The notes beneath the pieces were generated by a model. It was not told the origin of the DNA, made no database searches, and saw only the letters and a list, made by a program, of their open reading frames with translations. Positions 1-61,042 of a stretch of 64,000 nt of DNA are shown in pieces. Origin of the DNA: Isurus oxyrinchus (Eukaryota); contig JANJGN010000041.1 in assembly GCA_026770705.1 (NCBI GenBank), positions 1,488,001-1,552,000 on the forward strand. Reading direction: 5' to 3'. Within the stretch, counting starts at the first letter, position 1; each line of letters starts with the position of its first letter. The translations under genes and the position numbers were made by a program.

Positions 1-287
1 GAAGCTGCAGGAGATTCCGGGCGATCAGAAAGATGGAAAATGGAAGGGAACCCAAGATTTTACTTCTATCCTCTCAACCAAATGCATGAAGTAATGGACA
101 ACGTTTACTGTTTTTCTCTGTGGTGGCAGATGTTTGATGTTTTGTCCAGTTTTATGTATCTCGACAACTTTGTGCAAGTATTTCGCTGCATTCTGCAGCT
201 CCTGTATTGATGCACAATCATTTGCATTTATGTTGTCGTTCAGAAAATGTTGCAATTGCACTTGAAGAATGTGCTGGAATATGATTA
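1..287 (+). pseudogene. 3' end (TM5 end to TM7/helix 8) of a decayed GPR139/GPR142-like GPCR pseudogene (locus A1), running off the window start
   Basis: Translates with frameshifts and stops to ...FSLWWQMFDVLSSFMYLDNFVQVFRCILQLLY*CTIICIYVVVQKMLQLHLKNVLEYD*. This matches the family TM7 pattern seen in the intact gene (GFMLGILSCSTNTFIYVLTQASFREELK). Paralogous to 36767-37050. Confidence 0.75.
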
Positions 288-2727
288 AAGTAACTGAAAC
301 ATTGTTCCTGGGCAGCACTGTCTAATGCTCTTTCAGCTTTTCAGCATGTGGAAGGGCTTGCCAGCAAGACAAGAGAAGAATAGTGGGCTAGTCACAAATG
401 GTAACATTGCCTGTTGAACAATTGGCATTTACAAAATGAAGGTATCTCGCTCTGATTAGACATCATAGTCTCCAGAATAACAGCACTCCCATTGGGCAAT
501 CGACTGTTCCACATTGCTTGTCCTTCACACAACTGTTCTACAAGGTGCCCTCCCAGCAGCATCACCCAAATATCCCATGACACCCATCCCCATCTACAGC
601 CCCAAATGCATTTGGCCATTCCACATGTCCGTTATAAAACATTCCACAATTGTCCCTTGCAGATGTTGCACATATTTACCACAGTGCTCCCAGACCCCGG
701 CCTGGACTTGTAGCAAAACTAGCAATCGCTTTACTGATGAACATGAACGATAATTGTCACAGTGATTTTGCAGAAAAGGGTCTTAGTAATTTTTCAATCG
801 CCCCACGAGCCTCCACGCATCTGGCCTCAAACATATTTCCTATTTTACCCTTCATTTCTTTCTCTCTCAGCTGCTTTCCTGGTTTCCCCTTCAAGAGTTT
901 TATAATGTTCACCTGAACCATCCCATCTCGTAGCGAGTTCCACATTCTCAGGAATCTCTGGACATGAGGTCTCTCCTGAATTCCCCATTGGATAATTTTC
1001 TGATTGTCATACATTGGTGACCATTTAGCTGCGTCCCTCCCCACAAGAGGAAACATTTTCCCTGTATCCAATCTCTCAAAATGCCTGCATTTTAAACACT
1101 TCTATCGTGCCATCCCGGAGACTTGTCTTTTCCAGAGAGAAGAACCACAGTTTGAATACGCCTCTTCATATTTAAACCCGCACATTCCTGGCATCATCCT
1201 TATCAATCCCCTCAAAACTACTGCTTCTATATCGCTTTTATAACAATCCAAGTTGACCATGTGCGCAATTGTCTAAGATTGGTCAACCAATGTTTTAATC
1301 AGGCTCAACATATCTGCTTGACTTTTCCATTCTATCGCCTAAGGCATGAAGCCAAGTGTTTGGTTTGGAATATTTTAATGTCCTGTTAACATAAGGGTCA
1401 GCTTGAACTGATTGATGTATTTGTACTCCCAAATCGCTTTGTACCTCTTCCCCTTCGAGAGGAAAGATGAAAGAAGAAGAGCCTCGTTTCCTTGTGTCAC
1501 TGCGATCAGCTCTGGACAGCAGGCACATTTAAGGCTATATGGCTTGAAGCGGAGGCCACTATCGTCGGTAGTGATAGGGGTTTTGGGGGGGTGGCAGTGC
1601 GGCATGGGACAAGGAACACATGTACAAGCCAATTCCGTTTTCTGGTGAGGCGGGCTTCATGACCATCTGAAGTAGTCACTGTAGATACTTGAACTGAAGC
1701 GCCAGTTGAGCCCTCATTTAGTGTCAGGCGACATCTTTTTCAAATTGATTTAATCAAAATCCTCAAAGTAACATCACCTAAAAATAGCGAGCGTCCGTGC
1801 TGCTATGCGATATCGAATGCTTATACAATTGTAATAGATGATATTAGTGGGAGACTGGGTAAGACCACAATAAATAAAATGCTATTATTTGTTGTTTCTT
1901 TAAAGGGCATGAAACTGAAGCGATGGGTTTACATTTGGAGAGTGTTTTAATGGTTATGGGATAAAATTGTGGTAATGGTGTTCAGCACACATCAGGCAGC
2001 TGTCAGTTGAAAAGAAGGACATGCTTGAAGTGCGAAAACGATTCCTCCTGTTCCAATCAATACCGATCTACGGTGGCTGCTGTGAAATATGCTCACCTCC
2101 ATTATGATCATTTCTAATAAAGAGTATCTGTGCTCGGGCTAACTCATCGTGACTCGGAGGTGCCCAAGAGAAGGTGTGGAAAGCTTTGTTCTCGGTCATT
2201 GAATTTCCAGTGCACTAACAGCACCGATACTCTTTATTGAATCTGCACAGATATTATGTAGTTTATAATAACATGCAAGCAATGAAGATTGTCTCCACTT
2301 TGAGCGTGATAAAGGGACAGTCACCCAAGCCGGGAACTTGTTAACCACCAGAGAGACCAATCTTTGTTATGAACTGGTGAAGGTTTAAATTAATTGTTAA
2401 TGATTTATAAGGTAAGAGCCAATCTGCAGAGGAGACGGTCTTTTAGCCCATTGAGCATCTCCTGGATCTTTGAAATTGCTGCTGAATAATGTCCACTCGA
2501 TCACTTCACTTTCCCCATTGCTCTGCTATCGCTCTTGTTTTCCGCTCAGTTACGTACACAACCCCTCATTTGTGACTCAACATTCCATCTTCCTCCAGTA
2601 CCCTTTCAAGAGTCACCTTAGAGGTCACACGGGCAGGTTGTGCAGAAATATGTTTCCCACATCTTCTATTGTGTAATCTGCCAGTTGCCTTCAATGTGTT
2701 CCACCCGATCATCCAAAATCCCACACT

Positions 2728-2865
2728 GATTGCCACTATTGGAAGAAATGCAGATGTCTCCCCTGGGGCTGATATTGATCATTTGACTAGCCTCAGAAAA
2801 ACAGATTACCTAGTTATTAACTGGCTGATGAGTTTCGCTGGTTGAAACATTAACAACAGTAACTC
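2728..2865 (+). mobile_element. Fragment of a Deu-domain tRNA-derived SINE (SacSINE/AmnSINE-like central domain and tail)
   Basis: gccactattggaagaaatgcag...aaaaacagattacctagttatt...acattaacaacagtaact resembles the Deu-domain consensus as I recall it, and is the reverse complement counterpart of the 46805-47135 element. Confidence 0.45.
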
Positions 2866-2934
2866 ATTATATGTTCAGAGCTCTGGGACAGCCCAAGGAA
2901 GGCAATGGTCTGCAGGGACAAACCCATTTCACAT

Positions 2935-3270
2935 GTTTCTTTTCTGCATTTCCCCTCATCTCCCTCTCTCTCTCCCTCTCTTTCTGTCTCTCTCTTTCGC
3001 TGTTCTTTTCTCTCCCTATCCCCTTCTAGCTCAGTCTTCCTTCCTCTCTACTTGCTCTATCTCTCCCACTCTCTCGCTCTGCATCTCCCTCTCTGTGCTC
3101 TCACGCTCTTCCTTTATTCACTATCTAGCTCTCTTTTATTCGATTATTCTCTTTTGCTCTGTCTCGCTCTGTTCGTGCTTCACCATTTGTTTTACTATTC
3201 TTGTTCCATCTTATCCTCCATTTTCCTTCCACGCTTCATCTCATTGTCCCTCTTTCTCTTTCTTTTAATG
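2935..3270. repeat. Degenerate CT-rich polypyrimidine simple repeat
   Basis: Long run of ctct/tctc motifs; gives rise to spurious S/L/F-rich ORFs. Confidence 0.85.
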
Positions 3271-5341: not shown

Positions 5342-5632
5342 GTAAATTAGTGATGTTTTTGTTCCTGTTGCAAGGAAAGTGTTCTCCTTAAAATTTTATT
5401 ATTGGCTACCTGAAGCGAATGGCTTCGACTGGGTTCCAGGAAGTCATATCCGATCCGATGTTATGGGGGATTTGTTAGATGAAAATCACAGTTTTATTGG
5501 TGTGCAATACTCGCATCTCACATGTGTAAATTCATTGAGTTTCTATGTTTGTTTTTCATTCACAATCACCCCTTTCTGCTTCACAGTTGCCTTTATCAAT
5601 GTACCGACAGCGGATATTGGTTGCAAGAAGCA
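5342..5632 (+). pseudogene. Relic of GPCR exon 2, 5' part (TM1 end to TM3/ICL2) (locus B1)
   Basis: Polypyrimidine tract then a mutated acceptor (ttgccg), followed by KLVMFLFLLQGKC... and ...PFCFTVAFINVPTADIGCKKH. Compare VNVVGIVILYRGKCGLSKC...SVWLTVVFTFDRFVVICCKKL in the intact gene. Paralog at 41063. Confidence 0.65.
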
Positions 5633-7920: not shown

Positions 7921-9439
7921 CAAGAAATAGTTTCACATAGACGAACCATTTTACATCGCTCCGATCATGACGTAATCACACAAGTGCGAATGACACTAAT
8001 CATCCGTTCAGGGCTGTCGCATATTCAAGGGTGAGTTGGATAGCTTATTGACCATCAGGGAGACTAGGGTCATGAGGATATAATTGTTTGTTTTGAGAGA
8101 GTTGGCAGAGGGAGCCGGTGTACGGCCCTGGCTGGGGAGGCGCAGGCAGGACAGCGGGGCTGAGGCTCTGATAAGATAAACCATGAACCTTTCGATTTGC
8201 AGAACAGTCTCAAGGGACCGAATGACCTCCTGAACTTAACTATTCTGTTTTTGGTGCTTCATTTAAATGCAGCCCACACCAAAGACGGACGTGCCGTCGA
8301 TTCGGATTCAGCATAATCAGTGCATCCATCTGTTAATGATTGTCTGCAGAAGAAATTTGAGAGCCAAGAGTTAAATGTTAATTGTGGAACACACTCCCTG
8401 CGATGTACTCTAGATATCCCATTATTTTATTGACAAAAAGGTTCTTCATTCAGTTCAAGCATCACTCTGGATAGAGTATGTGAGTGGGTGAGCAGGAGGA
8501 TTGCATGGCCTGGTGAATCGTTACTGAGAGTGTATGGGGTTGGATTGTCCTGAACGCATTATTTTGAAATATTTCAGTTGAGAAAACAAAAGCCTTCTCC
8601 ATACACTTTCTATTGCACATCAGGTCACCACCAACACCAACCTTCCGGGTCCTACAGTTGCGTTCATAATTTCCAGGCAGAATGGTGCAAATTTCTGTGC
8701 AACGACAGAATGTAGGTCAAGTCACTGATGGAAATGTAATTTCCAGAGGAATCCCCGGAAATATCTGGGCAGCGTATGAGTCCCGTCTGGAACATTAAAT
8801 GACAAAGACATATATTAGACATGTGCCCTTTTGTAACATAGAATGTGTCCCGAAACAAAAAACAGTGGTGAACATCTGAAATTTCCCCACTACTTCCCCT
8901 GGCGGTTCAGGCCAATTGAGTTTCATCGAATCATTTTGATCTAAATTAGTAATGATTTTATACCTAACATCGCTCTGCGTGTCAACCATTTCCTGCCATG
9001 CCTATCCACTATGGGACCTACCCGATGCTCGGATAAAAATATAGACCCTTCAATTGTATTGACCACACATATCATTCCAATGTTCGGCATTTCAATTCAT
9101 AACGGTTCCTTTCAGAAGGAGAATGACTGACGTAACCTGTTTGTTCAATGGGTAAAACTAATTACTTTCTTTAGCGGACATGAATGCGCTCATGGGGATT
9201 TATCTGCTGTCTACATAACAGCTTCTCTGAATGTCACATTTCATGCTATCTAACAGGCTCGGTGTGTCTGTTTCAGCAGGAGTTAGCGCTTCTCTGCGAG
9301 GATATAATTTGCTGTGCTTCATCAGATGTGGACCACTTACAAACCCATTCTCGAATCTCTCGTTTTCCAATGTACGTTTATTAACATGCTCTCGGACTAA
9401 CAATGTAAATTTTTGTCCGTCTTTACTTTCATGGATGTT

Positions 9440-9961: not shown

Positions 9962-10031
9962 ATGGGAGAACTTCTTCTTCAACAGATAGAAGCCATTTAC
10001 TATTCTATTCTCGCAGCTATTGGTGTTCCTG
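9962..10031 (+). pseudogene. Exon 1 of GPR139/GPR142-like GPCR copy C1 (MGELLLQQIEAIYYSILAAIGVP-G)
   Basis: ATG in good context (aagATGG), 70 nt, canonical GTAAG donor at 10032. Phase 1 joins in frame to the acceptor at 15199/15200. Confidence 0.85.
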
Positions 10032-10206
10032 GTAAGAGCCTAAATACAATCTTAACACGTGTAAATGAATGTTGACGTTCTTTTCAAACGCCAGTTCCAA
10101 TAACATGGAATCGATTCTTTACTGCAGGGATATATGTTTAACCATAATGATAACAGATTTCATCCTGCTGCTGTATTTTATACTCTGTGGTATCCACTGC
10201 TGAAAA

Positions 10207-10436
10207 CGTTGTGGAAGGGGGCCGGAGTAGGACTGCAACAAGGAATATTCCACATACCCCATAAGGAGACTGGCATAGTTGGGGCCCATGCGGGTACCCA
10301 TAGCCACACCTTTTATTTGGAGGAAGTGAGAGGAGTTGAAGGAGAAATGGTTCAGCGTGAGTAGAAGTTCAGGCAGACGGAGGAGAGTAGTAGTGGATGG
10401 GGAATGTTTGTGCCTCTGTTCGAGGAAGAAGAGAAG
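10207..10436 (-). mobile_element. Inverted fragment of the Penelope RT at the 5' junction of PLE1
   Basis: Minus-strand FFLEQR...LLRLPELLLTLNHFSFNSSHFLQIKGVAMGTRMGPNYASLLMGYVE; reverse-complement copy of about 11420-11645. Confidence 0.9.
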
Positions 10437-13003
10437 ATGCTTCAACAACTCATCGACACCAACACCATCTAGGACCCTCCACCCCTGCCTGTCCCTCCGT
10501 CCCCACCCTTTCTTCCAATCCCAACCCCTGCCATGTATTCACTATACCCCCTGACCTTCCCCTCTCCGATGCTGAACGTTCAGTGCTCAGCAAAGGTCTA
10601 GGTTTCATCCCCTTACGCCCTCACCTCAATGAATTTCGGGCTCGGCATGATACTGAACTCTTCTTCCGCCGTCTTTGTCTCTGGGCTCAATTCTTTGGGC
10701 AGTAGTCCTCTCCCAGTTCAACGGATCCTTTTACCCATCTCCAATATTCTCCCTCCACCTGGACCACTCCCTCTGGATTCTTACCTTCTCTCGATCTTTC
10801 CATTGAGAACTGTCGGCACGACATTAGTCATCTCAATTTCTCTGCTCCTCTCAACCATTCTAATCTGTCTCTCTCTGAAATAACTGCACTACATTCTCTC
10901 AGGTACAATCCTGACATTGTCATCAAACCCGCTGACAAGGGTGGTGCTGTTGTTGTCTCGCGCACTGACCTCTACCTCGCGGAGGCTGAGCGTCTACTCG
11001 CAGACACTTCCTCCTACCTCTCCCTGGACCATGACCCCACCACTGAACATCAAGCCATTGTTTCCAGGACTGTCACTGACCTCATCACCTCTGGGGATCT
11101 CCCTCCCACAGCTTCCAACCTGATAGTCGCCGAAGCTCGGATGGCCCGCTTCTATCTCCTAACCAAAATCCACAAACATAACTGCCCCGGTAGACCGATC
11201 GTCTCAGCTTGCTCCTGCCCCACAGAACTCATTTCTCGTTATCTTGACTCCCTTCTCTCTCCCCTTGTCCAGTCCCTTCCAACCTACATCTGTGATTCAT
11301 CTGACACCTTACATCACATCAACAATTTCCAGTTCCCTGGCCCCAACCGCTTCCTCTTCACGTTGGACATCCAAACCCTCTACACCTCCATCCCCCACCA
11401 GGATGGTCTGAGGGCCCTTAGCTTCTTTCTCGAACAGAGGCCTGAACGATCCCCATGCACTACTGAACTCCTCCGTCTGGCTGAACTTGTTCTTACGCTG
11501 AACAATTTCTCCTTCAACTCCTCTCACTTCCTCCAAATAAAAGGTGTGGCTATGGGTACCCGCATGGGCCCCTGCTATGCCTGTCTCTTTATGGGGTATG
11601 TGGAACATTCCTTGTTGCAGTCTTACTCTGGCCCCCTTCCACAACTTTTTCTCTGGTACATCGATGATTACATCGGTGCCGCTTCATGCTCTCGTCGGGA
11701 CTTGGAAAAATTTATTAATTTTGCTTCTAATCTCCACCCATCCATCATTTTCACGTGGTCCATCTCTGACACTTCCCTTCCCTTCCTTGACCTCTCTGTC
11801 TCAATCTCTGGTGATAGACTGTCCACCAATATCCATTACAAACCCACCGACTCCCACAGCTATCTCGACTACAGCTCCTCACACCCGGCTTCCTGTAAGG
11901 ACTCCATCCCATTCTGCCAGTTCCTTCGCCTTCGTCACATCTGTTCCAATGATGCTAAATTCAAAAACAGTTCCTCTGACATTTCCTCCTTCTTCCTTAA
12001 ACGAGGTTTTCCACCCACGGTCGTTGACAGGGCCCTCAACCATGTCCGGCCCATCTCCCGCGCATCCGAACTCATGCCTTCTCCTCCCTCCCAGAAACAT
12101 GATAGGGTCCCCCTTGTCCTCAATTATCACCCCACCAGCCTCCGCATTCAAAGGATCATCCTCCGCCATTTCCACCATTTCCAGCATGATGCCACCACAA
12201 AACACAGCTTCCCTTCACACCCTTATCGACATTCCGTAGGGATCGCTCCCTCCGGGACACCCAGGTCCACTCCTCCAACACCCCCTACCCCTCAACCCCC
12301 TCCTATGACACCACCCCATGCCTACGCAAAAGATGTAACACCTGCCCCTTCACTTCCTCTCTCCTCACCGTCCAAGGGCCCAAACACTCCTTTCAAGTGA
12401 CGCAGCATTTCACTTGCATTTCCCCCAACTTATTCTGCTGCATTCGTTGCTCCCAATGTGGTCTCCTCTACATTGGAGAGACCAAACGTAAACTGGGCGA
12501 CCGCTTTGCAGAACACCTGCGGTCTGTCCGCAATAATGACCCAAACCTCCCTGTCGTTTGCCATTTTAACAGTCCACCCTGCTCTCTTGCCCACATGTCT
12601 GTCCTTGGCTTGCTGCATTGTTCCAGTGAAGCCCAATGCAAACTGGAGGAACAGCACCTCATCTTCCGACCAGGCACCTTACAGCCTTCCGGATTGAATA
12701 TTGAACTTTAGGTCGTGAGCTCCCTCCCCCATCCCCACCCCCTTTCTGTTTCCCCCTTCCCTTTTTTCCATTAAGTTATAAAGATTTTCCATTTCCCGCC
12801 TTTTTCCATTATATAAAAAACACACCCGCACTAGAGCTATATCTTGAGTGCCCTACCATCCATTCTTAATTAGCACATTTGTTTAGATAATATCACCAAC
12901 TTTAACTTTAACACCTATGTGTTCTATTGTACCATTGTCGTTGACATCTTTTGATGATCTGCTTCTATCAATGCTTGTTTGTCCATACAACCACACCCCC
13001 CAC

Positions 13004-41062: not shown

Positions 41063-41355
41063 ATAAATTAGTGATGCTTCTGTTCATGTCCAGAGGAAAG
41101 TGTTATCCTTCAACTTGTATTATTTGCTACCCAAAGCGAATGGCAGCGACCGAGTTCCTGGACATCATATCCGATCCAATGTTAAGGGGATTTGTCAGGC
41201 GAAATTCCCAGTTTTGTTCGTGTGCAATACTCTCATCCTGCATGTCTAAATTCATTGTGCTTCTATGTTTCTTTTTTAAATTTACCATCACTTCTTTCTG
41301 CATCAAAGTTGTCTTTATCAATGTCCCAACAGTGGATATTTGTTGCAAGAATCAC
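41063..41355 (+). pseudogene. Relic of GPCR exon 2, 5' part (locus B2)
   Basis: ORF 40993-41418 contains DKLVMLLFMSRGKCYPSTCIICYPKRMAATEFLDIISDPML...FCIKVVFINVPTVDICCKN, which resembles VILSRGKCGLSKCITHYMIAMATADLLVV...FTFDRFVVICCKK. The acceptor is mutated to CCG. Confidence 0.7.
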
Positions 41356-46119: not shown

Positions 46120-46189
46120 ATGGGAGAACTGATACTTCACCAGATAGAAGCCATTTACTATCCTATTCTCGCAGCTATTGGTATTCCTG
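46120..46189 (+). CDS. Exon 1 of intact GPR139/GPR142-like class A GPCR (copy C2)
   Basis: ATG (aatATGG) MGELILHQIEAIYYPILAAIGIP-G, then GTAAG donor at 46190; phase 1. Confidence 0.87.
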
Positions 46190-46804
46190 GTAAGAGCCTC
46201 AATACAATCATTACCGTATAAATGGATGTTTGCCTTCTTCTCAAACGTCGGTTCTGATAACATGGAATCGCAACTTTACTGTTGGGGAGTCATCAAAGCA
46301 GGGATGTATGTTTAACCATAACGGAAAGAGATGTCTTCCTGTTGCTGTATCTTACACTCTGTGGCATCCACTGCTGACACTTATTCTTGCTTTACGGAAT
46401 GTCTTGTAACAGGGTGGGCTCTGCAATTATTATCGTAATCAAGTGCAAACGCTGTTTGAACTTGTACGAAACACAATCTGTGAAAATCTGTGCAGAGGCA
46501 AATTCGCATTCTGCAAAATTTGGTTTCAAATACTTGAATCCATTGCTAATGGGTATCATTCAACTTCCAATATTCAAAGGAACTGAATCCCTTTCAAATC
46601 ACATACTTATTACCACAGCGATTTTTTTTTACAAATCTGTATGCAGAGAGGATATCTGGAAGTCTGGGTGAAACGGATTACTGTGTGTGCTGAAGTCATT
46701 CTGATGTTTACTCACCTGTCTATTGAAATACACAAAATTCTGCAGCCTCATTTATCAAACTTAATGCATATACATGAAGTGTAGTCACTGAAGTAACGCA
46801 ACTG

Positions 46805-47135
46805 TAACAGGCAATTTTTGGTCGGGAAGTTTCCAAAAGCAGCGAGTTGATAATGGCCGGATGATCTTTTCTGTGGGCTTTAGCTCAGGTTTAAATAGTG
46901 GTCAGGACGCAACGGGCTACAACACTGTTGTTCGGCGAAATAGTGGCATGGATTCTTTGACGTTTATCCTGTGATTCAAATTGAAATATGTTCTTAAAGT
47001 TTTTACTTCCAATAGTTCAGAACAACTACACTGCGACAATGGAGCATTAGCCGAGATTTTTGTTCTCAAGTACTGAGAATGGGCTTAAGTCGTCAAACCT
47101 CCACCTCAGTACGCAGATTGCTAACTGAGACATAT
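46805..47135 (-). mobile_element. Deu-domain tRNA-derived SINE (SacSINE-like), decayed
   Basis: gataatggccggatgatc...cgaaatagtggcatgg...gatttttgttctcaagt...tgctaactgag resembles the antisense of the shark Deu-SINE as I recall it. Duplicate at 51942-52270. Confidence 0.6.
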
Positions 47136-48879
47136 GTGGACCGATTTCGAAACACCTATGCTTTCGATCAGTTATCTGGTTCTCATTATTCTGCTCCTTT
47201 CAATTTCTAGCCTTCCACTTCCTGCTTTTATGAACCCTGCTTCCAAATCTAACTGATTTACATTGAGAATTGGAATAGATTGATATTAAGCATTATAGAA
47301 GTTGACCATTTGGCCGCATGAGGGTCCTCGACTACTCAAGTATATGATGGCTGAAAGTATGCCCCCACGACATTCTATCCACTATCTCATATCTTTGGAT
47401 GCATTTAATATTGAGAAATCGGTTCATAGGCACTTTCAAAATACTCAATGACAGCCCATGAGCGGAGTTTGCCATACATAATTTCGAACATTTACCACTC
47501 CCTGAGCAACGAAATTCGTCCTTAGTTCAATTCTAAATATAGACCTCATATTCTGAAATAGCTTTTCCTGGTTTTAGACACAACCGCAATGGGAAACATC
47601 CATCAAAGATCTACAGCACCGAAACTTATATGAACAGTGATTATTTCAGTGAGATCACTTCTCATTTACCAATGCTCCAGAAAGCAGAGGATGAGTCCCG
47701 ACAATGTTTCCACAAAGGACAATCTCAGCTAAATACCAGTAATCCAAGAAGTAATCTGCTGAACATTTCTTGTCACAGAGCTAAAACATCACCTAATGGA
47801 ATCTACACCGAATGAGTAAAGTAGAATGATTGACCAGCACCACAAACATCAGCATAAACACAGCACATGAAAATTGCAAGCTGGGGATAGGCTGGGCTTG
47901 GGGTTACAAATTATGGTTGTGCACAAATCAACTCCAGCTGATGGTCCACGGTGCCTCATGAATGCCCCCTTTTGAGTTCTTGATCAAGGTGAAAAAGGCT
48001 CATTTATCACAATGGTTGTCCTTCACAATGCAATGGACGGAAGCTCCAGTGTAAAGGAAGAATTAGTTTGCAGGACGTCCGTGACTTGGTAAATCCTATA
48101 AATCATTGAATGGACAGATGCACATGTGGTGGGTAGTAGGTTGGTGGACCGAATTCAATTTGGTTTCTGCACCTGGTTTTTTACCTGACCACATGCCAAA
48201 TACCCAGTCTAGCTTTTATCTTTAGGACTCTGCCTGTTCGGCCATTAGTGGAACTAACGATCCTCTCTTGCTCACAAACATCGAGTTCCCCGATGTATTT
48301 TTTTTTCTTGTCAATGCTCAAAACGTATGCCATTGGTGATCATTGATTCATCCGCTGAGAGGAACGGGAGGTGATCACCAGGAGAATATATTCATTGCCA
48401 ATGAATTACGTGATGTCATGAGATTTCATTTTAGTACCCGGTCTTCTCCACGCTATGCAAAATGGTGCACACTGAACGTGTTGCAAAATGGTATTTATGA
48501 AAGCAGCAATGCAATTGAGTGATAACAAGAAATTGGGTGAGTAATTAAACTTTTACATATGATTACTTCACTCAGATGTTTGCTGATGATTCATCTGAAC
48601 TTTAAAAACAGTAAGAGGACTTATTCAGATCAGGATAAACAACTTGAATTCTTAAGTTTACTGACTGATCGCAAATCAGGCAGTCTGCTTTATTCCTGAT
48701 TAAGTGCATATCCTTGAATTCTATTGGCGCGTAACTCATGTAGATAGGTCTGGCATATCAAATCGCACTCCTGATTTGTGCACTTTAGGTGGAGGAAAGG
48801 TGTTGGAGAGTCAGGGGATGCGTTGCTCACCACAGAATTCTCAGATGCTGACCTGCCCTTCTAGGCACAATCTCTTGTC

Positions 48880-50210
48880 AATGGATTGTCCAACACTGTT
48901 GAAATTGGGGGATTAAGGGATGATAATTCCATTAAATGTCAAGCGTATTTCGTTGCATATTCGTTTGGTGCTGATGGGCATTGCCTGTTAAATGTCTGAG
49001 CCGGTTAAACTTGTCATTTTTCAACACAACTCTGGCTATTGCCCAGTTCTTGATACACATGGGCACGGAATTCATCAGCATTTGTTGAGTCACGAATGGT
49101 GCTGAACATTGACCAACGATCAGCGGACACAACGCCCTCCCGCTACCTCACCCCCTCCCCAAGAAACCAAAACCTCCTTCTGTGTTTCAAATGGAGAGAA
49201 GTTCATTGATGCAACGGCTTAAGATGCTTGTGCTCAGGACACGGCCCTCAGGCTGTCGTCCAGTTACGTCATGGGGCTGAGACGATTCACCTGCAAGCAA
49301 AACAAAAAGAAAAAATACATACTTTTTGCTTGTTAAGACTCCAAGCAGTGGGGGAGTTGCCTCTTATTCTTAATGACTGCAGTTCTCATAGCTCTCCTTG
49401 ATACATGGTGTGACAAATGTTGTCTTGATATAAAACACAGCTGCTCACTCCTCACCTCATGAGTAGAGCACTTTTGACAAAATTTGCACTAAGGCCAGCC
49501 CTTAGCTGGAACTCGCACGATGCAAAAAGTGAGCTTCAGTGAGCAGTTTGCTGCGGAGTACTTGGCATTTGAAAGCATTGTCCATGATAATTTTCATCAC
49601 TTTGAACATTATGAAGTGTAGGCAGATGGGGCTGTAATTAGATTTATTGGATTTGCCGTGTTTATTTGTGGATAGGCATTCCTGTGAAAAAGCTCGCATT
49701 TTTTCATAGAGCCATTATTTTACTTGCACTATACCAGCTTCGATAGGCAGGCTTATTCAGGAGCACTGATCTCCCGTATTACCTGCATTATCCAGATGGA
49801 CCCATAGCCTCTGCCTCATCCAGTTCCTTAAGTCATAACTTAAATTCAAGGGCTGACAATCACATTGTATGAAGACTGGTATCTGTGATGCTCGTCATCT
49901 GTATGAAGAGGCCGGGATGGTTCATCCACCCGTCACTTCAGGATGAATGTGGCTGCACATTCTTCAGCCATGTATGTACACAGGTGCGTTGCCCTCCACA
50001 GTCATTGCCGATGCGGATATTGGTGAAAGCCGTCCAAAATGATGTGCAGAACTTCCCACAACTATTCAAGGTGACTGTGACAGGACTTCAGAGATGAGCT
50101 CTCGTTATTTGGTAGGGGAATCAATGAGACCTGTCTTTCTCATGCTGAATGCGCTATTTTGCTTGCAAGTTGCCCCGTCTTGCAATTCACCAGGTTAAGC
50201 CATGTTATTA
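48880..50210 (-). mobile_element. Decayed CR1-group LINE (second family) RT fragment; duplicate at about 54110-55430
   Basis: Minus ORF KSNKSNYSPICLHFIMFKVMKIIMDNAFKCQVLRSKLLTEAHF resembles KSNP.NYRPISLLSI.SKVME.......L..N.LL..AQF. Confidence 0.65.
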
Positions 50211-50755
50211 AGACTGATCACTGCTGCTGTGGACATATGACAGCTGTCAGCAAAGTTCCTTCGTTTGTGCAACTGACCTCGAAAGCCTGGAACGACAAGA
50301 GCAGAAGAGGCATTAGAACACTCTTAATTATAAAATCCTTTCCGAAACACACAACAAGCTGACTTGGAGTGAAATCACGCATCCCTGATTGTCACTCAGT
50401 CAAAAGCCTGGAAATCCATCGCTCATAGCATTTTGTCCGCACCCACTTCACATAGACTGCAACGCTGTAAAAACCCTTATGTCCAAGAAGAACTAGTGTA
50501 AACGGAAATAAAAGTGCTAATTATGTAAATGTATCCAAAGAAAATAAAATGTTGGATGATGACGAATCCATGAATATTAATAGATTTTTGTTTATTGGAA
50601 TGACGGCCTTGGCTGTTTTTCTTTCTTGCAATTCAACAAAGATTAGGTACAAAATGCATATTTTAATTTAAATTATTCCGGAGAATACTGGCCTCGAAAT
50701 GAGAACGTATATTTTGAATTCATGTCTGAATATCTAAGTATTTAACCAAAAGGAT

Positions 50756-51468
50756 TGGCTGGAATTTTCGTCCAAAAATCGCACACACCCCTCCCCCTCA
50801 GCTCCCCAAAACCTCCACTGCCCACCACTCACCCCCCTCAAAAATGCCAAAACCGCACGATGATCAACGACTTGCATCGGTGTAATGACGTCACGTACAT
50901 GAATCCCCCAGTTGCAGATGGAGAACAGGCGAGCCCAAGTTACGAACGAGCAAGTTATTGAGTTTGTGATCAACACAATCAGACGTTTTCTTGATTTGTG
51001 CTTTGCACTTGCCATGACCGAGAGGAGAGGAAAAAAAATGTTTCTGGGCAGCTACCACTACACAACAATCACGCGGAAGAGAGGTTCTGCCTCCGGGACC
51101 ATGATTAAATGTAGCAACAGATTTTGCTGGGGAATATGGCAGCAACGTCATGTATACTTTTCACTTTTTTGTTTCTTGCCTGAGCTTTCAACGAAAACTA
51201 TTATTGGAAAAACAGTTTCTGAGAGCAGATGGTGTTGAGCTTGCAGCCAGACCGACTTTCTGTTCCCAGCATTACACTCTGCTGCATGATGTTCAGGCTG
51301 TGACTGCCGATTGGACACGGACCCCATTTTGCATCATTGAATGACTCTTGCCCGTGGGAATTTAATGACTTGTGGAGCGGGAGGTGGTCTAAGGGAGGGT
51401 GAGTAGGGAAAGGGCTAATTTAACATTTCTCCAATATCACGCTTCGAAAAACGTAAATTCCGGGCCAC
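50756..51468. mobile_element. Non-autonomous DNA transposon (MITE, possibly PIF/Harbinger type)
   Basis: Imperfect terminal inverted repeats tggctggaattttcgt ... acgtaaattccgggcca; no transposase. Confidence 0.6.
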
Positions 51469-51941
51469 TGTCCACTTATTGTCATGTTTCTCTATGATCT
51501 TAAATCAGAATTAACGGTTTGAACCTGCACCGGAGGATATGTGTCACTTCTCTAGTGCAACTGCTACTATCGAGCCTGCAGCAATGTGCCATAACCACAA
51601 AGAAAATTTTGTAAATCGCACTCGGTGGTGCGTTCGCCGCAACATTCACAGAATCATTGAAAGGAATTTGCCCGTAAGTGCAAAATATGCAATAGAAAAT
51701 GGTTATTTTGTGCTTACACTGCGAATAGAACATTGTTGTTAAAGTGAAATGGATTTGGGACCTTGGGCAAAATTGTGTCACTCTGTTGTTCTTCAGACTC
51801 GGGTGATTGCAGTAACGACACGAAGAGGCACTTAAACCAAAGCGCACTGCACCTGCTCCACTGCTTGCATTTCTACAGCCTCATTTATCGGTCACTGTAA
51901 TGAATTTACATTAACTGTATGCATTGAAGTAACGTAAAAGG

Positions 51942-52270
51942 TGACAGGCAATTTTTGGTTGGGAAGCTTCCACAAGCAGAGAGTTGACAATGACCAGATG
52001 ATACTTTTTGCGGGCTTTAGCAGTGGTTTAAATACTGGTCAGGGCGCAAGGGGCTACACCAATGTTGTTCAGCGCAATAGGGGCATGGATTCTTTGATAT
52101 GTATCCTGTCAATCGATTTGACATCTGTTCCGAAAGTTGTTACATCCGGTAGTGCAGAAATACTTCAATATCACAATGTAGCATTGGCTGAGAATATTGT
52201 TTTCCAGTACTGAGGCCGGATGTAAGTAATCAAACATCTCTCTCAGCACGCACATTGCTAACTGAGACAT
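51942..52270 (-). mobile_element. Deu-domain SINE (duplicate of 46805-47135)
   Basis: gacaatgaccagatgatac...aaatactggtcaggg...caatagggGcatgg. Confidence 0.6.
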
Positions 52271-55200
52271 AAATGGTTCGATTTCGGAGCACTTATGCTC
52301 CCCGAGTATTTTTCTGGTTTTCATTATTCAGCTCATGTCAATTTCTAGCCCTGCACTTCCTGCTGTTGAAAACGCTGCTTCCAAATCTAACTGATTTAAA
52401 TTGAAAATTGGAGTGGAGTGATACGAAGCATTGTCGGACTCCCATGTGGCTTTGGGAAAATCATGAAGTCACGTTACATGGCGGCGCTGACAGAGGGACA
52501 GAGAAGCATACGAAATGCGAGTAGAAGTTGACCATTTGGCTACAGGAGGGTGCTCGACTACGCAAGTATATCATTGCTGAACTTATGCCTCCACAAGATT
52601 ATTTGCACTATCCCATATCTTTGGATGCATTTAATATTGAGAAATAGGTTCATTGGCATATTGAACATCCTAAATGACTGCCCATCTGCCAAGGTTGCTT
52701 TGCATAATTTCGAATATTTATCCCTCCCTGACTGATGGAATTCTTCTCATCTCAGTTCTAAATGCAGACATCTTATTCGGCTAATGCTTTTCCTGCTTTT
52801 AGATACACCCTCCAGGGGAAACATCCATCAAAGATCTAAACCACCGATACTTATAAGAACAGCGAATGCTTCAGTGAAATCAGTTATCATTTACAACGCT
52901 CCAGAAAGCAAAGGATGAGTCTCCTCAATGCTTCCACATAAGACAATCCCAGCTAAATACCAATAATCCAAGAAGTAATATCTTGAACATTCCGTGTTGC
53001 AGGGCGATAACAACACCTAATGAAATCTACAAAAAGGAGCAAGGTGGAATGCTTGACCAGCACCACCACCGTCACCATAAACACTCCACATGAAAATTGC
53101 AGAGCTGGAGATACACTGGGCTGGGACTGGGGTTACAAATTATTGTTGAGCACAAATCAGCTCCAACTGATGGTCCACAGTGCCTCATGAATGCCCACTT
53201 TTGAGTTATTGTTCAATGTGAAAACTACCCCCATTTAGCACAATGGTTGCCTCACAGAATATGATGGAAAGAAGCCGCAGTGTGAAGGCAGAATTCGTCT
53301 GCACGAGGACCGTGTGCTGTTCAATCCTATGTATCATTCACTGGACAGATGCACATGTGGTGAGTAGTTTAGTCGAGCGAATTCAATTATGTTTTTGCAC
53401 CTCGTTGTTTCCCTGAACACAATGGCAAAGACCCAGTCGAGCAGTTGTCTGTATGACTCTGCCAGCTCGGCCATTAGTGGAGCTACCGATCCTCTCTTGC
53501 TCAAAGACAACGAGGTCCCAGACAAAAAGCAATTTTTTTCTCTTGTCATTCACCAAAGCGTCGGGCAGTGATGATAATTGATTCATCTGCTGAGGGGAAC
53601 GGGAGATGGTTTCCAGGAAGCGATATTAATTTTCCATGTGTTATGTGATGTCATGAGCTTTCATTTATGGAGCTCCTGCTCTCAAGTCTATGAAAAATGG
53701 TGCACACTGAAAGTGTTGCGAAATGGTATTTAGGAAAGCAGTAGTGCAATTGAGCGATACCGAGAAATTGGATGGATAATTCAAATTTTGCATAAGATTA
53801 ATTCACTCAGATGTTTGCTGCTGATTCTTATGAAGTTTACAAACAGAACGAGGAATTATTCAGATAACGATAAACAACTTGAATCATTAAGTTTACGGAA
53901 TGACTGCAAATCAAGCAGTCTGCTTTGTCCTGGATTCAGGCAATATCCTTGAATTCTTTTGCAGCGTAAATCATCTAGACAGTTGTAGTGGATCCAATCA
54001 CTCTCCTGATATATGTGTTTTAGATGGAGGAAAGGTTTCGGAGATTCTGGGTGTGCTTTGCTCACCAAAGCATTCTCAGATTCTGACCTGCCCTTCTGGT
54101 CAAAGTTTCTTGTCAATGGTCAGTCCGAGTGTGTTGAAAATTGGACCTGAAGGGATGGTAATGCCACTAAATGCCAACGGTATTTTGTTGGATATTGTTT
54201 CGGTTGAGGTACACATTGCCTGTCAGTTCTGTGGGGTGAGTATTACTTGTAACTTTTCAGAACAAGTTTGGCTATTGCCCAGGTCTTGATGCGCATGTGC
54301 ACAGGTTTCATCAGCATCTGTTGAGTCGTGAATGGTGATGAACTTTAAACAATGATCACCGGACGCAAGCCCTTCCCACTACCTCACCCCCTCCCCACCA
54401 CACCAAACATCCTTCTGCGTTTGAAATGGAGAGAAATGCATTGATGCAGCAGCTTAAGATGAATTGCCTCAGGACACTGCCCTCAGGCTCTCCTCCAGTT
54501 ATGTCATGGGGCTGAGATGATTCACCTGCAAAGCAAAAAAATAAGAAAAGTAAAAAATATACTTTTTGCTTGGTAAGACTCAAAGCATTGGGGAGGTTGC
54601 CCTTGTTATTGACTACAATTCTCATAGCCCTCCTTGATACATTGTGCGACAAATGTTGTCTTGATATAAAACACAGCTACTCAGTCCTCACCTCTTGGCT
54701 ACAGCACTTCAGACCATGTTTGGACCGAGGCGAACCGAGAGCAGGAGCTCGGACGATGCAAAAAGTGAGCGTCAGTGAGCAGTTTCTGGCGATTGAAGAC
54801 ATTGTCCATGATAATTTTCATCACTTTGGTCATGATGAAGTGTAGGCAATTGGGGCTTCTATTACATTCGTTCGATTTTTCGTGTTTTTGTGGATAGGCA
54901 TATCTGTGAAAATATTCACATTTTCGCGTAGCTGCCATTATTTTAGATGAACCATACCAGCTTCGATAGGAATGTCTTATTCAGGAGCACTGATCTCCCG
55001 TATTATTGGTATTATCTAAAATGACCCCTAGGTTCTGCATCATCCAGTTCCTTCAGTCATTCCTTAAATTCAACTGCTCAGAATCACATTGTACGAAGAC
55101 TGGCATCTGTGATGCTTGTCAGCCGTGGAGGAGGCCGGGATGGTTCATCCACCCGTCACTTCATGGTGGATGTGGCTGTAAATGTTTCCGTGATGTATAT

Positions 55201-55976
55201 GCACTAATGCACTGCACAGCACAGTCATTGCCCATGCGGATATTGGTGGAAGCCGTCCAAAGGTAAGGTGCAGAACTTTGCACAACCATTCAAGGCGAGT
55301 GTCACAGGACTTCAGATCTGAGCTATCGTTATTTGGTGGGGGGGTTCAATGAGCCCTGTCTTTCTCGTGCTGAATAGGCTGTTTTGCTTGCAAGTAGCCC
55401 TGTCTTGCAATAAACCAGGTTAGGCCGTGAAGTTAGGAATAATTGCTGCGGCGGTGGACATAGGACAGATGTTGGCAACGTTCCTTCATTTGTGCGTTTG
55501 ACCTCGTAAGCCTGGAAGGTCAAGAGCAGAAGATGTAACGACAACTCTTAATTATTAAATCCTTTCCAAGTCACACACCAATGTGACCTGAAGAGACATC
55601 ACCATTCCCTGACTGTCATTGGGTCAAAAACTGGAAATCCATCGCTGGAAGTACTGTGTCTGCACCCTCTTCACATAGACTGCAACATTATTTTCAACCC
55701 TTATTTTCAAGAAGAATTAGTGAAAATGGAATTAGAAGTGTTAATCTTGCCAATATATCAAACGAAATGAATATGTTGCATAATGACGATCATATGAATA
55801 TGGATTTCCGTTTTGTGTTGAAATGACGCCCCTGGATGCTTCTTTTGTTCCAACTCAACAAAGATTGACTACAAAATGCATGTTTAAATGTAAAATATTT
55901 CGGAGTACACTGGCCTATAACTAAGAACGTATCTTTCGAATTCACTCCAGGATATTAAATCTTTAACCAAAAGGAT

Positions 55977-56725
55977 TGGCTGGAATTTTCGTCAGCAAAT
56001 CGCACCTCCACCGCCCCACACACTCCCCACCTCACCAACCCCCAGCCCTCAGTCCCCCCAAAGCCCACTCCGCACCAGCCACCCCCCTCAAAAATGCCGA
56101 ATCCGCACGAAGATCAATAACATGGATCGTGTATATTGACGTGACATACATGAACTCTCTCTTGCAGCTGGAGAACGGGTGGGCCTAACTTGTAGAATCA
56201 AGAATTATTGTTATTGAGTTTGCGTACGACACAATCGTATGTTTTCCACATTCATGCTTTGCACTTACCGTGGCCCAGACGAGAAAAGATAAAATGTTTC
56301 TGAGCAGCCACCATTAGACGATAATCGCGCGGAAGAGAGTTTCTTCCTCCGGGACCATGATTAAATGTAGCATCAGGTTGTGCTGGGGAAGGTGGCAGCG
56401 CCTTCATGATTACTTTTCACTTTTTTTATTTCTTCACTGAGCTTTCAACGAAAACAGTTGTTGGAAAAAACAGTTTCTGAGAGCAGGTGATCTTGTGCTT
56501 GCAGCCATAATGACTTTCTGTTCACAGCATTACACTCTGCTGCATGATGTTCAGGCTTTCACTGCCGATTGGTCACGGGCCCCATTTTGCACCACTCAAT
56601 GCCTCCTCCCCATGGGAATTTAATGTATTGTGGAAGGGAGGTGGTCTAAGAGTGAGTGAGTAGGAAAGGTTTATTTTTTACTTTTCTCCAATCTCACGCT
56701 GCCAAAATACGTAAAATCCAGGCCA
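55977..56725. mobile_element. MITE (duplicate of 50756-51468)
   Basis: TIRs tggctggaattttcgt ... acgtaaaatccaggcca. Confidence 0.6.
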
Positions 56726-59700
56726 TTGATTACTTATTGTAATGTTTCTTTATGATCTTAAACCACGAATTGCGTTTTGAACCTGCACCGGAGGATATGT
56801 GTCACTTCTCTAATTTAACTTCTGTGGTCGATTCTGCAGCAATGTTTCATAACCAAAAAAAACTTCAGTGGATCACACTCGGTGGTGCATTCGCCACAAC
56901 ATTCACAAATTCACTGAAATGAATTAATCCTTTAGGATCTGTTTTGCATGCAAAATATGCCACAGAAAATTGTTATTTTGTACTTACAATGTGAATAGAA
57001 AGTTGCTTGTGAAAGTGATATGGATTTGGCACCGTGGAGGAAACTCCATAGCTCTGTAGTTCTTCAGACACGGGTACTTACACTAACGTCATGAAGAGGC
57101 ACATAAACCGAAGTGCACTACACCTGCTCCATGTTCCTTTTCCCAAACAGCAAATCAATAACAGTTCAGAAGCAGATAGCAGTTGCAGCAAACAATGGGT
57201 CATTCTGTAGCATATATACATTTTCATTTCTCTAGTTTATTTAGAAGGGAATAATGTTGATAATTTATTTGATGACTGTGTACTTAATTAGCTAGCTAAA
57301 TAGTGGATAATGGTTTGTATAGGTCACTGTTTCATTCGGTAGATAATTGGATGGTTCATTCCTGGGGCATTTCAACGTTCAATTCGGAGCAATATTCTGG
57401 AAATGTACTGACAATGTATTAGATAATACTTTTGATATCGACATTGGCTACTTCATTATATAATTGTTTAAATTACTGAATTTTTTATGTTCTTTCCTTG
57501 CTCACAGAGCTGGCCAGTACAGTTTCATGTGCTGATAATTTGGCTAAGAGTGTTTGTATAATTCACAGTTGCGCACAGATAATTATGTCTTTCAATTCAA
57601 ATGCATGTCATTGTAGGAATATATATATATATATATATTAGGTTTGATCAATAAATAATAGGCATCGGATAATTTTCATTTTTGACATTTATTTTAAGCT
57701 GCAATTGTGTCAACATAGCTTTGATTAATAATGTCTCTACATTTTCTAGTGAATCCTACATGGTCAACAGAAACTCAAACTTTATTTTTTATCCATTGTC
57801 TGACTTTTTCAAGGCTTTTTGTGATTATTTTTGACAGCTCCATTAAGTCAATCAATTTTTGATGCTTCTATTCATGTTAGAGAATTGTGAATCGGATGCT
57901 GCCAGCTGGGCTGTGTATGTAATGTAAATATTTTTTTTTTTTTCTGTGTGGTCAAAGTTTGCCAACTTGCAATCTGATCCAAAAATGTAAAAAGCTGTTT
58001 ATCTTTGGGCGACTAATTCACCTTACTCATTCAAAGTTCATCTGAATCATTAACCAACAACTTACTGAAATAGTATGATCCAAACTGTTAATTAACCATC
58101 GGTTTATATACCTTCAATGCATTGTTGTTTCCCTTAGTTCAAGATTGCGAAAACTCTATGTTCAGTCTGCACCATGTTGCATAGCCATGAAACCAGTGGC
58201 TACTTGAAATAACTCTTTAAATACTCATCCCATTATTTTGAGAATGTGCATTTTCCATTCGGAAATTTGTGCCTCACGAATCTGACCGGATATTTCAGTC
58301 GTGATGCTATGCTGCACCGTTGTCAGGATGACCCATGTCATCCTTTCCTATAGCATCCTCCAAGCAGCGAGCAGATTACCTACTTTAGATAATAATTTAA
58401 ACTAGAGTTATTTAACTTGCTTCAAAATGAAGGAAATAATTTAATAAACGTGCGCAGCAAGTTATTAATTACCTGGCAGCTAAAAAAATTAGTTCAGTGA
58501 GATCACTTAGAAAATGAATTCTTCAAAATTCACATGGATCTTTAGTAAGTAAACAACATGAGTCATAATGCAACCGTGATTATCTGAGGCTCACGTCAAA
58601 TTCGTTTGACTTATATAGATCATTTGATATAATCAATAATCTGTAAAAATGTTTGAAGCTAATCTTCTGCATAATAATGCACCATTGAATAACTTCGCTA
58701 ATTCCTTAAAAAGGTTCCTGCATTTTGAAAAAGGAAAAATACATTTTAACAACTAAGGCTAAGATTCATGGTTTTTAAGAGCCTGCCCAATCTGAAATGA
58801 AGTAAGCAGTAGAGGATAATAATTTAAACATGAGTGTGTTAGGAATTAGGTCTTTATTGTCAGGTAATCAACAATTCGTAATTTTCTGACATATATTAGT
58901 CTGCAGAGTATTGTCGATGTACCCATCACAGTCAATCTTTATCACAATCTTCTGCACTTGGTGCCCAGCAAAAATCAATTTTCAGCTTCACATTTCAAAT
59001 CACTTTGCACGGGTGCTGTGCTTGAGATGCAAGCGACTCCTTTCTGCATTTTCATCAACAAAGTGATTGGTTTTGCAGCCAATCAATTAATGGGGACCCT
59101 GTCTTGTCACTCAGAAGCAAAACGCTAGTTATCACCCCACTAGTATCACATCTTCGAATTGCTCATTCACTACACTTTGCGAGAGATATGCCCCTATGGC
59201 AATTAAATATTGCCCACTCAATATACTAGCAATGTCACCGCTGCCGCTCTGCCATTAAACTGCCCTCTTGATCAGCACTGACTACACCCATTCTGCATAG
59301 CAATGTTGATTCCCTCTTTCTGCACTGAATTAGTGACGCATTCACCTGAAATAATCCTGTACAATGCTCAGCTAGCATATCAATCTCATGTTACTCAGTC
59401 TGCCTTAAAACACACGACTGATCAGCACTCATCCCCGAATAAAACTTCTCCCTGGGAACCTTCATAAGAATGACACGTTGTACTGATTGTCATTGTACCA
59501 CCACTGTAAGGACACGTGTGCAAACTTGCATTTGGCATTCTATCCTGGTCTTTTGTGCAGCTCAGTGACCATTTTCTGTGTACCCTAACAAGCGTTCAGA
59601 GTATGTTCGTGCCCGCTGGCAATATTTTACCTTCAAACTGTATGTCCTGTAGCACAGTAATCCTACCCAATACTTATCACATCTATTGACAAACCAGCAC

Positions 59701-60143
59701 ACATTGCAAGACTACCTCTCCCAGAGTATAACTCTACTTGGCCCAGATTCTATTTTGCGCATTCATTTCCCACTTCACATTGTACCAGCACACATGAATT
59801 GACTCTTTACTTCTCCTATTTACGTTTTATTATTCACCATGCCCTGCCGCTTGTATTCATTCAAGTTGTTCAGGTCACATTCGCCCTCAGCAATCTCAAT
59901 CTTTATTATACAATAGTTGTCCACTTTACATTGAAGATATTCCTTTCAAAAGACGAATTAACAACTGATATTTCGGTTTACCTATCCACTTTCAGTAGCC
60001 TCTAGTAAACATTTAGAACCCGCACACCTCGATAAGCAGATGTCCATATTTGGGTCAAATGTATGATCCTTTGCAACAGGAGGCAAATTAATCATGTTCA
60101 TCTGTGTTGTCTATCTCATACTCTCTTTATCCCTCTCTTTCAG

Positions 60144-61042
60144 TTAATGTTGTTGGTATTGTGATTCTCTACCGAGGAAAGTGTGGCCTCTCCAAATGTA
60201 TTACCCATTATATGATCGCCATGGCCACGGCGGATCTCCTGGTTGTTTGTGCCGAAGTGATGTTGAAGAATACGCTAAATATTTATTTCCCTGAATCATT
60301 CTTGAATATTAGCACAGTATGCTATCTAAATGTGACAATGACGTATGTAGCCATATCAGCCTCTGTCTGGTTAACAGTGGTGTTCACCTTTGATCGTTTT
60401 GTGGTCATATGTTGTAAGAAGCTGCGAAAAAGATATTCCACGAAGACAACAGCAGTAGCTGTCATTTCAGTGGTCAGTATGTTGAGTTGTTTAATAAACA
60501 TTCCCTTGTACTTTGCGTATGAACCTGCGTATATAAAGGACAATGTAAATCGTGGTTGTGTCCTAAAACCAGCATTTTTGATTTCTGCTGAATGGGCCGC
60601 ATTTGACTTGTTTCACCTTATCATGACCCCATGTGTTCCATTCATTCTAATTTTGTTCCTAAATGTTTTGACGGCTAGACATATTTTGGTGGCCAGTAAA
60701 GTTCGCAGGGGTCTCCGCAGTTGCAGCAATGGAGAACATCACAAGGATTCTGAAATAGAAAGCCGAAGAAAGTCCATTATTTTACTCTTCAGTATAACCG
60801 GCAGCTTTATATTGTTATGGACAACTCCGGTTATATATATTATCTCACTGCATGTCATGTTAAATGCTGGCGAAAATTATCTTGAGTCCATTGGATTCAT
60901 GCTTGGGATCCTCAGTTGCTCCACAAATACATTCATTTATGTGCTGACACAGGCTTCGTTTAGGGAGGAGCTGAAGAGCGGAATGCAGTACCTTGTGAAA
61001 CTGTGCATAATATTCTGCAAATTACAGCTGAAATCCCATTGA
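60144..61042 (+). CDS. Exon 2 of intact GPR139/GPR142-like class A GPCR (copy C2); spliced product 322 aa
   Basis: Acceptor ccctctctttcag at 60143. 70 + 899 = 969 nt in frame. Seven hydrophobic segments, TM1 GIPVN, TM2 AMATADLL, TM3 FTFDRFVVIC, TM3 Cys (TVC) and ECL2 Cys (RGC), TM7 STNTFIY, helix 8 SFREEL. Family assignment is from motif recall; it is not claimed as the GPR139 ortholog. Confidence 0.92.

Follow-up and report, generated by a model that had tools for sequence, protein, structure and literature searches.

A GPR139-related class A receptor family of sharks and rays with a variable predicted pocket, represented by one intact gene in a stretch of Isurus oxyrinchus DNA

We analysed a 64,000-nucleotide stretch of the Isurus oxyrinchus genome (the window; contig JANJGN010000041.1, positions 1,488,001 to 1,552,000), which carries six receptor loci, A to F, of which only F is intact. 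The window is part of an elasmobranch cluster of two-exon class A G-protein-coupled receptor (GPCR) genes, and the clade to which these genes belong has dozens of members per genome. We are highly confident of the identity of this family as an elasmobranch, GPR139-related class A clade. Its members differ most from one another in the predicted ligand pocket and are nearly constant on the G-protein side. The window locus is an ordinary cluster fragment; the interest rests with the family, which to judge from its sequences is a real candidate sensor repertoire and apparently an undescribed one.

A large GPR139-related family in sharks and rays

Of 2980 candidates, 2086 match the protein encoded by exon 2 of F at E ≤ 1e-5, and the family figures given here rest on the best 120 of these. 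All 120 are from sharks or rays, including 49 from Heterodontus and 42 from Heptranchias, and nearly all are automatically named 'probable G-protein coupled receptor 139'. Cetorhinus (76% identical) and Carcharodon (77%) supply the closest matches. Median within-species identity is 61% in Heterodontus and 69% in Heptranchias, and the pairs above 90% identity (4 and 2, respectively) are possibly alternative models of one gene. At least 20 members lie on a single 74.5-Mb Heterodontus sequence. Within a single genome, the automatic GPR139 label hides 40–45 or more different members, a minimum drawn from the best 120 relatives. In an index-free search, 98 of the 50%-identity clusters reached E ≤ 1e-30, and 120 of its 150 best matches carry a family motif. 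The basal representatives P0194, P0186, P0171, P0164, P0142 and P0262 have no species assigned, and the shark-and-ray scope refers to the best 120.

An earlier note on this DNA had proposed a lineage-specific, high-copy orphan class A family whose genes might already be annotated automatically as GPR139-like, and both proposals are borne out by the species and names of the best 120. It had held that a low copy number genome-wide, or one-to-one orthology with a characterised receptor, would speak against its reading; we found dozens of copies per genome and no such orthology.

The class A residues N1.50, D2.50, C3.25, D/E-R3.50, P5.50, W6.48 and Y7.53 are 98–100% conserved in the 120 proteins. 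Among solved structures, a profile of 44 members scores highest with human GPR139 (82.4 bits, the next at 57.8), in a list that does not include GPR142. GPR139 is also the top solved relative of the two single-copy paralogue groups described below (62 and 69 bits). These comparisons assign the family to the superfamily of GPR139/GPR142 and FMRFamide-receptor-like proteins. GPR139 itself has an intron of the same phase in transmembrane helix 1 (TM1). Like the family, it is a two-exon gene, and its true orthologues are 70–96% identical (PMC7318219), so neither of the two paralogue groups is GPR139 as such.

Two other guides to the subfamily were discarded. In a single-sequence PDB search, F alone reaches 30.8 bits with human GPR139, which ranks under histamine H1 and M4, and in Foldseek class A receptors score alike, with GPR139 at ranks 27, 37 and 46 of the 50 shown. 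We rejected an identity as the GPR139 or GPR142 orthologue, for which about one copy per genome would be expected, on the basis of this low score, the 49 and 42 relatives per species and the grouping with other paralogues; the Trp/Phe site of F, given below, also departs from that of GPR139. The label 'GPR139/GPR142-like' used in the earlier note is thus right in that the profile search relates the family to GPR139, while unnamed paralogues from outside the mammals stand closest to it.

The shark and ray proteins (21 rows) form a clade with a support of 100/98 in a mixture-model tree of 37 rows with amphioxus as the root. The sister of this clade is a gene of amphibians and sturgeon (100/99), and a second paralogue, present in sharks, bony fishes, coelacanth, amphibians and reptiles, branches next (92/80). 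F and C group with the two lamniform genes at 100/99, with no clear branching order among them. A quick tree of 83 rows shows the same arrangement, with a few unnamed representatives falling between the shark/ray clade and the amphibian/sturgeon gene. Subclades are common to distant shark and ray orders.

Both outside groups resemble the family in their short N-termini and their automatic name 'probable GPR139'. Unlike the family, they have one gene per species among the matches listed and conserved pockets, and F is only 26–29% identical to them. They are possibly the GPR210A/B genes, a name given to extra fish and coelacanth subtypes (PMC6504862). The amphibian/sturgeon gene (P0224, P0390-P0409, P0416) has an invariant pocket, with S1.50 and N2.50, unusual for class A, in all 20 amphibian proteins. 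The second paralogue (P0231, P0268-P0385) is apparently single-copy, and the 120 proteins listed for it include neither mammals nor birds; two of its records are mislabelled as TMEM183A isoforms, a hint of a neighbouring gene. Given its strongly conserved pocket, it likely has its own endogenous ligand.

A variable pocket on a conserved core

In vertebrate chemoreceptor repertoires, ligand pockets are variable among paralogues and conserved among orthologues. We compared 29 pocket, 50 other outer-half and 94 inner-half positions, with helices numbered from anchor residues. Column identity in the 120 shark and ray proteins is 0.41 in the pocket, 0.55 in the rest of the outer half and 0.77 in the inner half (pocket versus outer, p=0.009). 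The corresponding values are 0.97, 0.81 and 0.81 in 20 amphibian orthologues, and 0.74, 0.60 and 0.69 in the second paralogue (86 named proteins, with 34 unnamed rows dropped). The reversal between the family and its single-copy relatives is significant in a difference-in-difference permutation (p=0.001). Parsimony on trees gives 20.9 class-changing substitutions per site in the pocket versus 10.6 and 3.9 in the outer and inner sets (p=0.002). A string of seven pocket sites takes 46 distinct forms in 49 Heterodontus proteins and one form in 20 amphibian proteins. The chemoreceptor-type pattern is therefore seen here, with the orthologue side of the contrast supplied by the sister and cousin single-copy genes.

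The signalling core shows the opposite behaviour. The activation residues D2.50, R3.50, P5.50, F6.44, W6.48, N7.49 and Y7.53 are 98–100% fixed, and P6.50 has been lost in the family (T in 62%, V in 22%). Intracellular motifs are common to 108–118 of the 120 proteins, and the motif in intracellular loop 3 (ICL3) to 70. The near-constant G-protein side comprises ICL1, the DRF motif, the ICL3-TM6 junction and helix 8. A variable pocket combined with a constant intracellular side suggests an arrangement of many inputs and one output. We consider it probable that the inverted pocket pattern reflects a repertoire tuned to many ligands, and the hypervariable pocket lends added support to the repertoire reading of the earlier note.

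One intact and five broken loci in the window

Receptor sequence (score >5) was found in six places only, all on the + strand, when all six frames of the whole window were searched with a family hidden Markov model (HMM) built from the 84 of the 120 listed homologues that are 290–350 amino acids long. In a frameshift-aware profile alignment the loci score 65 (A), 58 (B), 729 (C), 170 (D), 90 (E) and 785 (F). Control tiles free of receptor loci (n=40, 900 nt each, taken from both strands and spanning 900 of every 1600 bases) score 23–41. The six same-strand loci and the single intact one reported in the earlier note were thereby recovered.

Table 1. Receptor loci and other features of the window
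Feature	Position	Strand	Description	Evidence
Locus A	1..288	+	Exon 2 3' relic, TM6 to helix 8, cut by window start; paralogue D	HMM match 166-285
Locus B	5342..5630	+	Exon 2 5' relic, TM1 to TM3, ends after ~codon 116; paralogue E	HMM, profile alignment
Probable degenerate exon-1 copy	9290..9372	+	Borderline	No ATG in 21 nt upstream; GT at phase-1 position
Locus C exon 1	9962..10031	+	23 codons + 1 nt, GT donor	
Penelope-like retroelement	10202..12947	+	In C intron, separate from receptor	RVT_1 E=1.2e-6, under curated cut-off; GIY-YIG E=0.02, weak
Locus C exon 2	15200..16105	+	Young pseudogene	1-nt insertion near 15978, R3.50P, V to D in TM5
Locus D	36232..37046	+	Near full-length old pseudogene of exon 2, AG acceptor kept	Lesion count, acceptor
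Locus E	41063..41352	+	Exon 2 5' relic, truncation same as B	HMM, profile alignment
Probable degenerate exon-1 copy	45440..45520	+	Paralogue of 9290..9372	Exon-1 profile score 21.9
Locus F exon 1	46120..46189	+	ATG, short N-terminus, first half of TM1, phase-1 GT donor, 70 nt	
Tandem duplication, 5.1 kb	46738..51860 and 51871..57131	.	Inside F intron, absent from C intron	79% identity, K2P 0.22
Locus F exon 2	60144..61042	+	Intact, remainder of seven-transmembrane receptor	No lesion

The two exons of F are joined over a GT-AG intron of 13,954 nt into an open reading frame (ORF) of 322 amino acids with a single terminal stop. Exon 1 matches the Cetorhinus N-terminus at 87% identity. Exon 2 matches Pfam 7tm_1 (E=1e-19, 71 bits against a cut-off of 30.5). 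The predicted structure contains seven helices with a predicted local distance difference test score (pLDDT) of 89 and has a TM-score of about 0.7 to many class A structures.

Locus C has one frameshift and a damaged DRF motif, while A, B, D and E are relics. The frameshift, one T added to a TT run, could by itself be a mere assembly error; the change of DRF to DPF, at an arginine kept in 100% of the 120 family proteins, and the TM5 substitution argue for real decay rather than assembly error alone. Locus A carries 2 frameshifts and 2 stops, and the aligned part of D 5 stops and 6 frameshifts. The earlier note had exon 2 starting at the same phase-1 site in every locus that shows its start; a usable acceptor is present there only in C, D and F, since AG has become CG in both B and E.

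The six loci listed by that note are real, but its inventory missed two probable degenerate copies of exon 1. These sit about 660 nt upstream of the real exon 1 of C and F and keep the GT at the phase-1 position; their significance is borderline. The copy beside C ranks fourth in the exon-1 profile scan (score 15.0). Its DNA score is 64.5 and that of the copy beside F is 69; random windows (n=500), scored with F exon 1 as the reference, reach 63 at most. Apart from these relics, the scan of the window left A, B, D and E without an exon 1. An Rfam search had 0 matches, and Pfam found nothing over its curated cut-offs in 11 other window ORFs. The window yielded neither immune genes nor a neighbouring gene from another family.

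The array arose by one duplication of a cassette

Self-comparison of the window reveals two long same-strand units, at about 1-17462 and 36766-62372, that are 78–81% identical. As the earlier note had it, three subtypes are each present in both units, as the pairs A/D, B/E and C/F, which are about 56–64% identical to each other. The non-coding flanks have diverged by a Kimura two-parameter distance (K2P) of 0.195–0.241 between the units. A/D (0.257) and B/E (0.212) are as divergent as the flanks, while C/F exon 2 is lower (0.180). A and D carry TGA at the same codon, and their alignment runs without gaps through a region that is out of frame in both. B and E have the CG acceptor and the end point in common, and their alignment runs on into non-coding sequence. 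The shared TGA, acceptor and truncation, together with the flank-like divergence, indicate that A/D and B/E were already defunct when the duplication took place. One cassette of two dead relics and one live gene was duplicated once, rather than six genes being born. The birth-and-death reading of the array with its high pseudogene load is not supported in that form: the relics were already dead at the single duplication, and five broken loci of six overstate the turnover.

After the duplication, copy F stayed intact and copy C remained open for most of the time before it broke. The flanks contain 73 frameshifting indels per 8539 columns. With this indel rate and simulated stops, a neutral ORF is expected to collect about 6.4 lesions per lineage, and the probability under neutrality is about 0.002 for the zero lesions of F and about 0.012 for the single lesion of C. 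The open frame of F against this expectation shows that F has been under selection, and C died late. The ratio of nonsynonymous to synonymous substitution rates (dN/dS) between C and F is 0.57 by NG86 (bootstrap 95% interval 0.40–0.84), 0.59 by LWL85 and 0.79 by YN00. The quick tree joins C to the basking shark and white shark genes (82) and the mixture-model tree leaves the order open, so that the duplication is given no date.

An assembly gap of 286 N lies at 5984-6269; its counterpart in unit 2 is about 106 nt inside a TATC microsatellite. We ruled out that this gap hides the rest of B, since E breaks off at the identical position although it has no gap, and since the flanks can be aligned.

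Proposed function and alternatives

A possible mode of action follows the pattern of conservation. Each receptor would bind a different small amino-acid-like or short-peptide ligand in a pocket between TM3, TM5, TM6 and TM7, would switch via the invariant W6.48, F6.44 and R3.50, and would feed the same G-protein pathway as all the others. The family would form a combinatorial sensor repertoire in the manner of the olfactory receptor (OR), V1R or T2R families, most likely sited in a chemosensory epithelium (nose, taste, skin or gut). Many clustered paralogues accompanied by pseudogenes, a second feature of chemoreceptor families, are likewise found. A repertoire of many-ligand chemosensors is our best explanation of the family as a whole, and we would give it an even chance of being correct; a chemosensory tissue as the site could go either way as well. 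The earlier note had put forward a sensory or immune role; either is an inference from the sequences.

GPR139 uses F3.33, H5x43, W6.48 and N7x38 for Trp and Phe (PMC5430874), and the ancestral ligand of the superfamily is proposed to terminate in an aromatic residue (PMC8557429). Four pocket residues of the GPR139 type, F3.33, W6.48, K6.51 and N7.39, are retained in the amphibian sister gene. By HMM alignment and our own helix numbering, the GPR139 Trp/Phe site F3.33, H5x43, W6.48, R6.51 and N7x38 reads Y, H, W, P and F in the intact mako gene F, which thus keeps Y3.33, the histidine and W6.48. Across the family W6.48 is invariant, a histidine at the H187 position is present in 48% and F3.33 in 32%; in contrast to GPR139, most members are without P6.50, N7.39 and R6.51. 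The ligands probably spread beyond the aromatic amino-acid class.

Several points weigh against a chemosensor repertoire. The best 120 relatives are the proteins nearest to F rather than a random sample, and the trees were built without true GPR139 and GPR142. The 29 pocket positions are what we take to be a generic class A list, and the sites entering the pocket test cannot be treated as independent. Restricted to Heptranchias, the BLOSUM version of this test falls short of significance (p=0.105). Pocket variability is a protein-level measure, unable to tell positive selection from relaxation, and dN/dS between C and F is the same in the outer half (0.57) and the inner half (0.56), values that come from one codon pair. 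The triad of an aromatic residue at 3.33, H and W6.48 occurs in only 36 of the 120 shark proteins, N7.39 in 8 and R/K6.51 in 18, which casts doubt on aromatic amino acids as ligands. Catshark olfactory neurons are reportedly all of the Go/TRPC2 microvillous type with robust V2R expression (PMC10116579), and the nose may therefore not need another family.

A different use of a variable pocket would be an immune or barrier sensor repertoire, similar to formyl-peptide receptors or MRGPRs, in leukocytes, mast-like cells or sensory neurons of the skin and gill, responding to microbial or damage peptides. We consider this unlikely. The conserved inside, the variable pocket and the clustering are all predicted by it, and the FPR and MRGPR expansions show a similar pattern. 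Most leukocyte peptide receptors carry N-glycosylation sequons in the N-terminus, but only 1 of 73 short N-termini in the family has one. A phylogenetic link is also absent, since GPR139 is the best solved relative at 82 bits and chemokine-type receptors reach ≤54, and the window holds no immune genes. The superfamily does bind peptides (PMC7318219, PMC8557429).

It is also possible, with a still lower probability, that the expansion is largely non-adaptive. Repeat-driven segmental duplication would have multiplied a dispensable gene with a relaxed pocket, most copies being weakly expressed or dying. Five of the six window loci are broken, the duplication copied the gene together with dead relics and more than 17 kb of non-coding sequence, the dN/dS of C and F is high (0.57–0.79), and retroelements flank C. 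However, class-changing substitutions are twice as frequent in the pocket as at other outer-half sites, which plain relaxation does not readily predict, and the inner positions are as conserved as in the single-copy relatives (0.77 versus 0.69 and 0.81). The frame of F has stayed open where about 6.4 lesions were expected, and the sharing of subclades by distant shark and ray orders likewise speaks against this explanation.

Elasmobranchs fertilise internally, and a repertoire for their own reproductive or social peptides (seminal, oviducal or pheromonal) would echo the protostome sex-peptide/MIP receptor relatives; to our knowledge there is no matching expanded peptide family, for which no search was made. 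FMRFamide-receptor-like and Srw clusters are among the Atlas look-alikes of the family, and protostome MIP, proctolin, FMRFamide and myosuppressin receptors form the sister group of GPR139/142 (PMC12208981, PMC8557429), but dozens of divergent pockets per genome would exceed the usual endocrine need, and we regard this origin as improbable.

Relation to known receptor repertoires

Expanded class A repertoires as such are of a known kind in vertebrates and invertebrates, while a vertebrate repertoire founded on a GPR139-related paralogue appears new. Like the family, OR, TAAR, V1R/ORA, V2R/OlfC and T2R genes are clustered and subject to birth and death. The ancestry of OR, TAAR, V1R and T2R differs, the best solved relative of the family being GPR139. 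All 44 aligned members match 7tm_1, and none matches 7tm_4, V1R or TAS2R at E ≤ 0.01.

Among invertebrates, nematode Srw, Aplysia rhinophore receptors and lophotrochozoan expansions are comparable, and Srw-bearing clusters are among the Atlas neighbours of the family. Lineage-specific class A expansions with sensory expression are reported in molluscs, echinoderms and nematodes (PMC11886862). The family differs as an independent vertebrate expansion; 0 of 44 members match Srw, and 3 match Srx weakly.

Cartilaginous fishes were described as poor in GPCRs (PMC8455134). In the same whale shark paper, an orthogroup labelled GPR142 contains 70 proteins from 35 taxa, or about two per genome. Complete olfactory receptor genes number 20–62 in cartilaginous fishes, with a mean of 43.8, and the family is outside the six chemoreceptor families counted in that study (PMC10869828). 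Surveys that query just the six known families would miss it. Our literature searches, which did not cover most subscription journals, found no description of the family. GPR139 has 0 mentions in the main text of PMC11979771, PMC8455134, PMC10620051, PMC13100897, PMC11886862 and two bioRxiv preprints, one of them 10.64898/2026.08.31.747588, and 0 in the supplements of PMC10620051, PMC7677710 and, with one file in truncated form, PMC8455134.

A bolder proposal, which we put forward tentatively from the sequences, is that sharks and rays may possess a further, undescribed vertebrate chemoreceptor family, derived from a GPR139-related peptide or amino-acid receptor and at least as large as all their known olfactory receptor families together, with each cell of the nasal or some other chemosensory epithelium expressing one or few of its receptors. 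Whether few olfactory receptor genes limit the odour space of sharks was left open in PMC10116579. If the proposal is true, the family would help to explain how odour space is covered with 20–62 known olfactory receptor genes, and the single-copy sister gene in Xenopus would offer a laboratory handle on the ancestral ligand.

Repeats and retroelements around the loci

The Penelope-like retroelement in the C intron contains a short inverted internal copy (10202-10431 versus 11422-11651). A second Penelope-like retroelement at 17447-19945 (-) is inverted and 88.7% identical to it, and the pair brackets C exon 2. At this site, C is without about 11.8 kb of the F intron. The divergence of the tandem duplication in the F intron equals that of the large unit duplication, and no receptor sequence was found inside.

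A short repeat with inverted copies is present in both orientations at 5695-5981, 13087-13267 and 41417-41731 and is probably a small non-autonomous element. Local direct duplications of 300–400 nt occur at 27186-27578 and 28552-28912 (73%) and at 43014-43316 and 43885-44171 (80%); the latter pair also matches 7573-7875.

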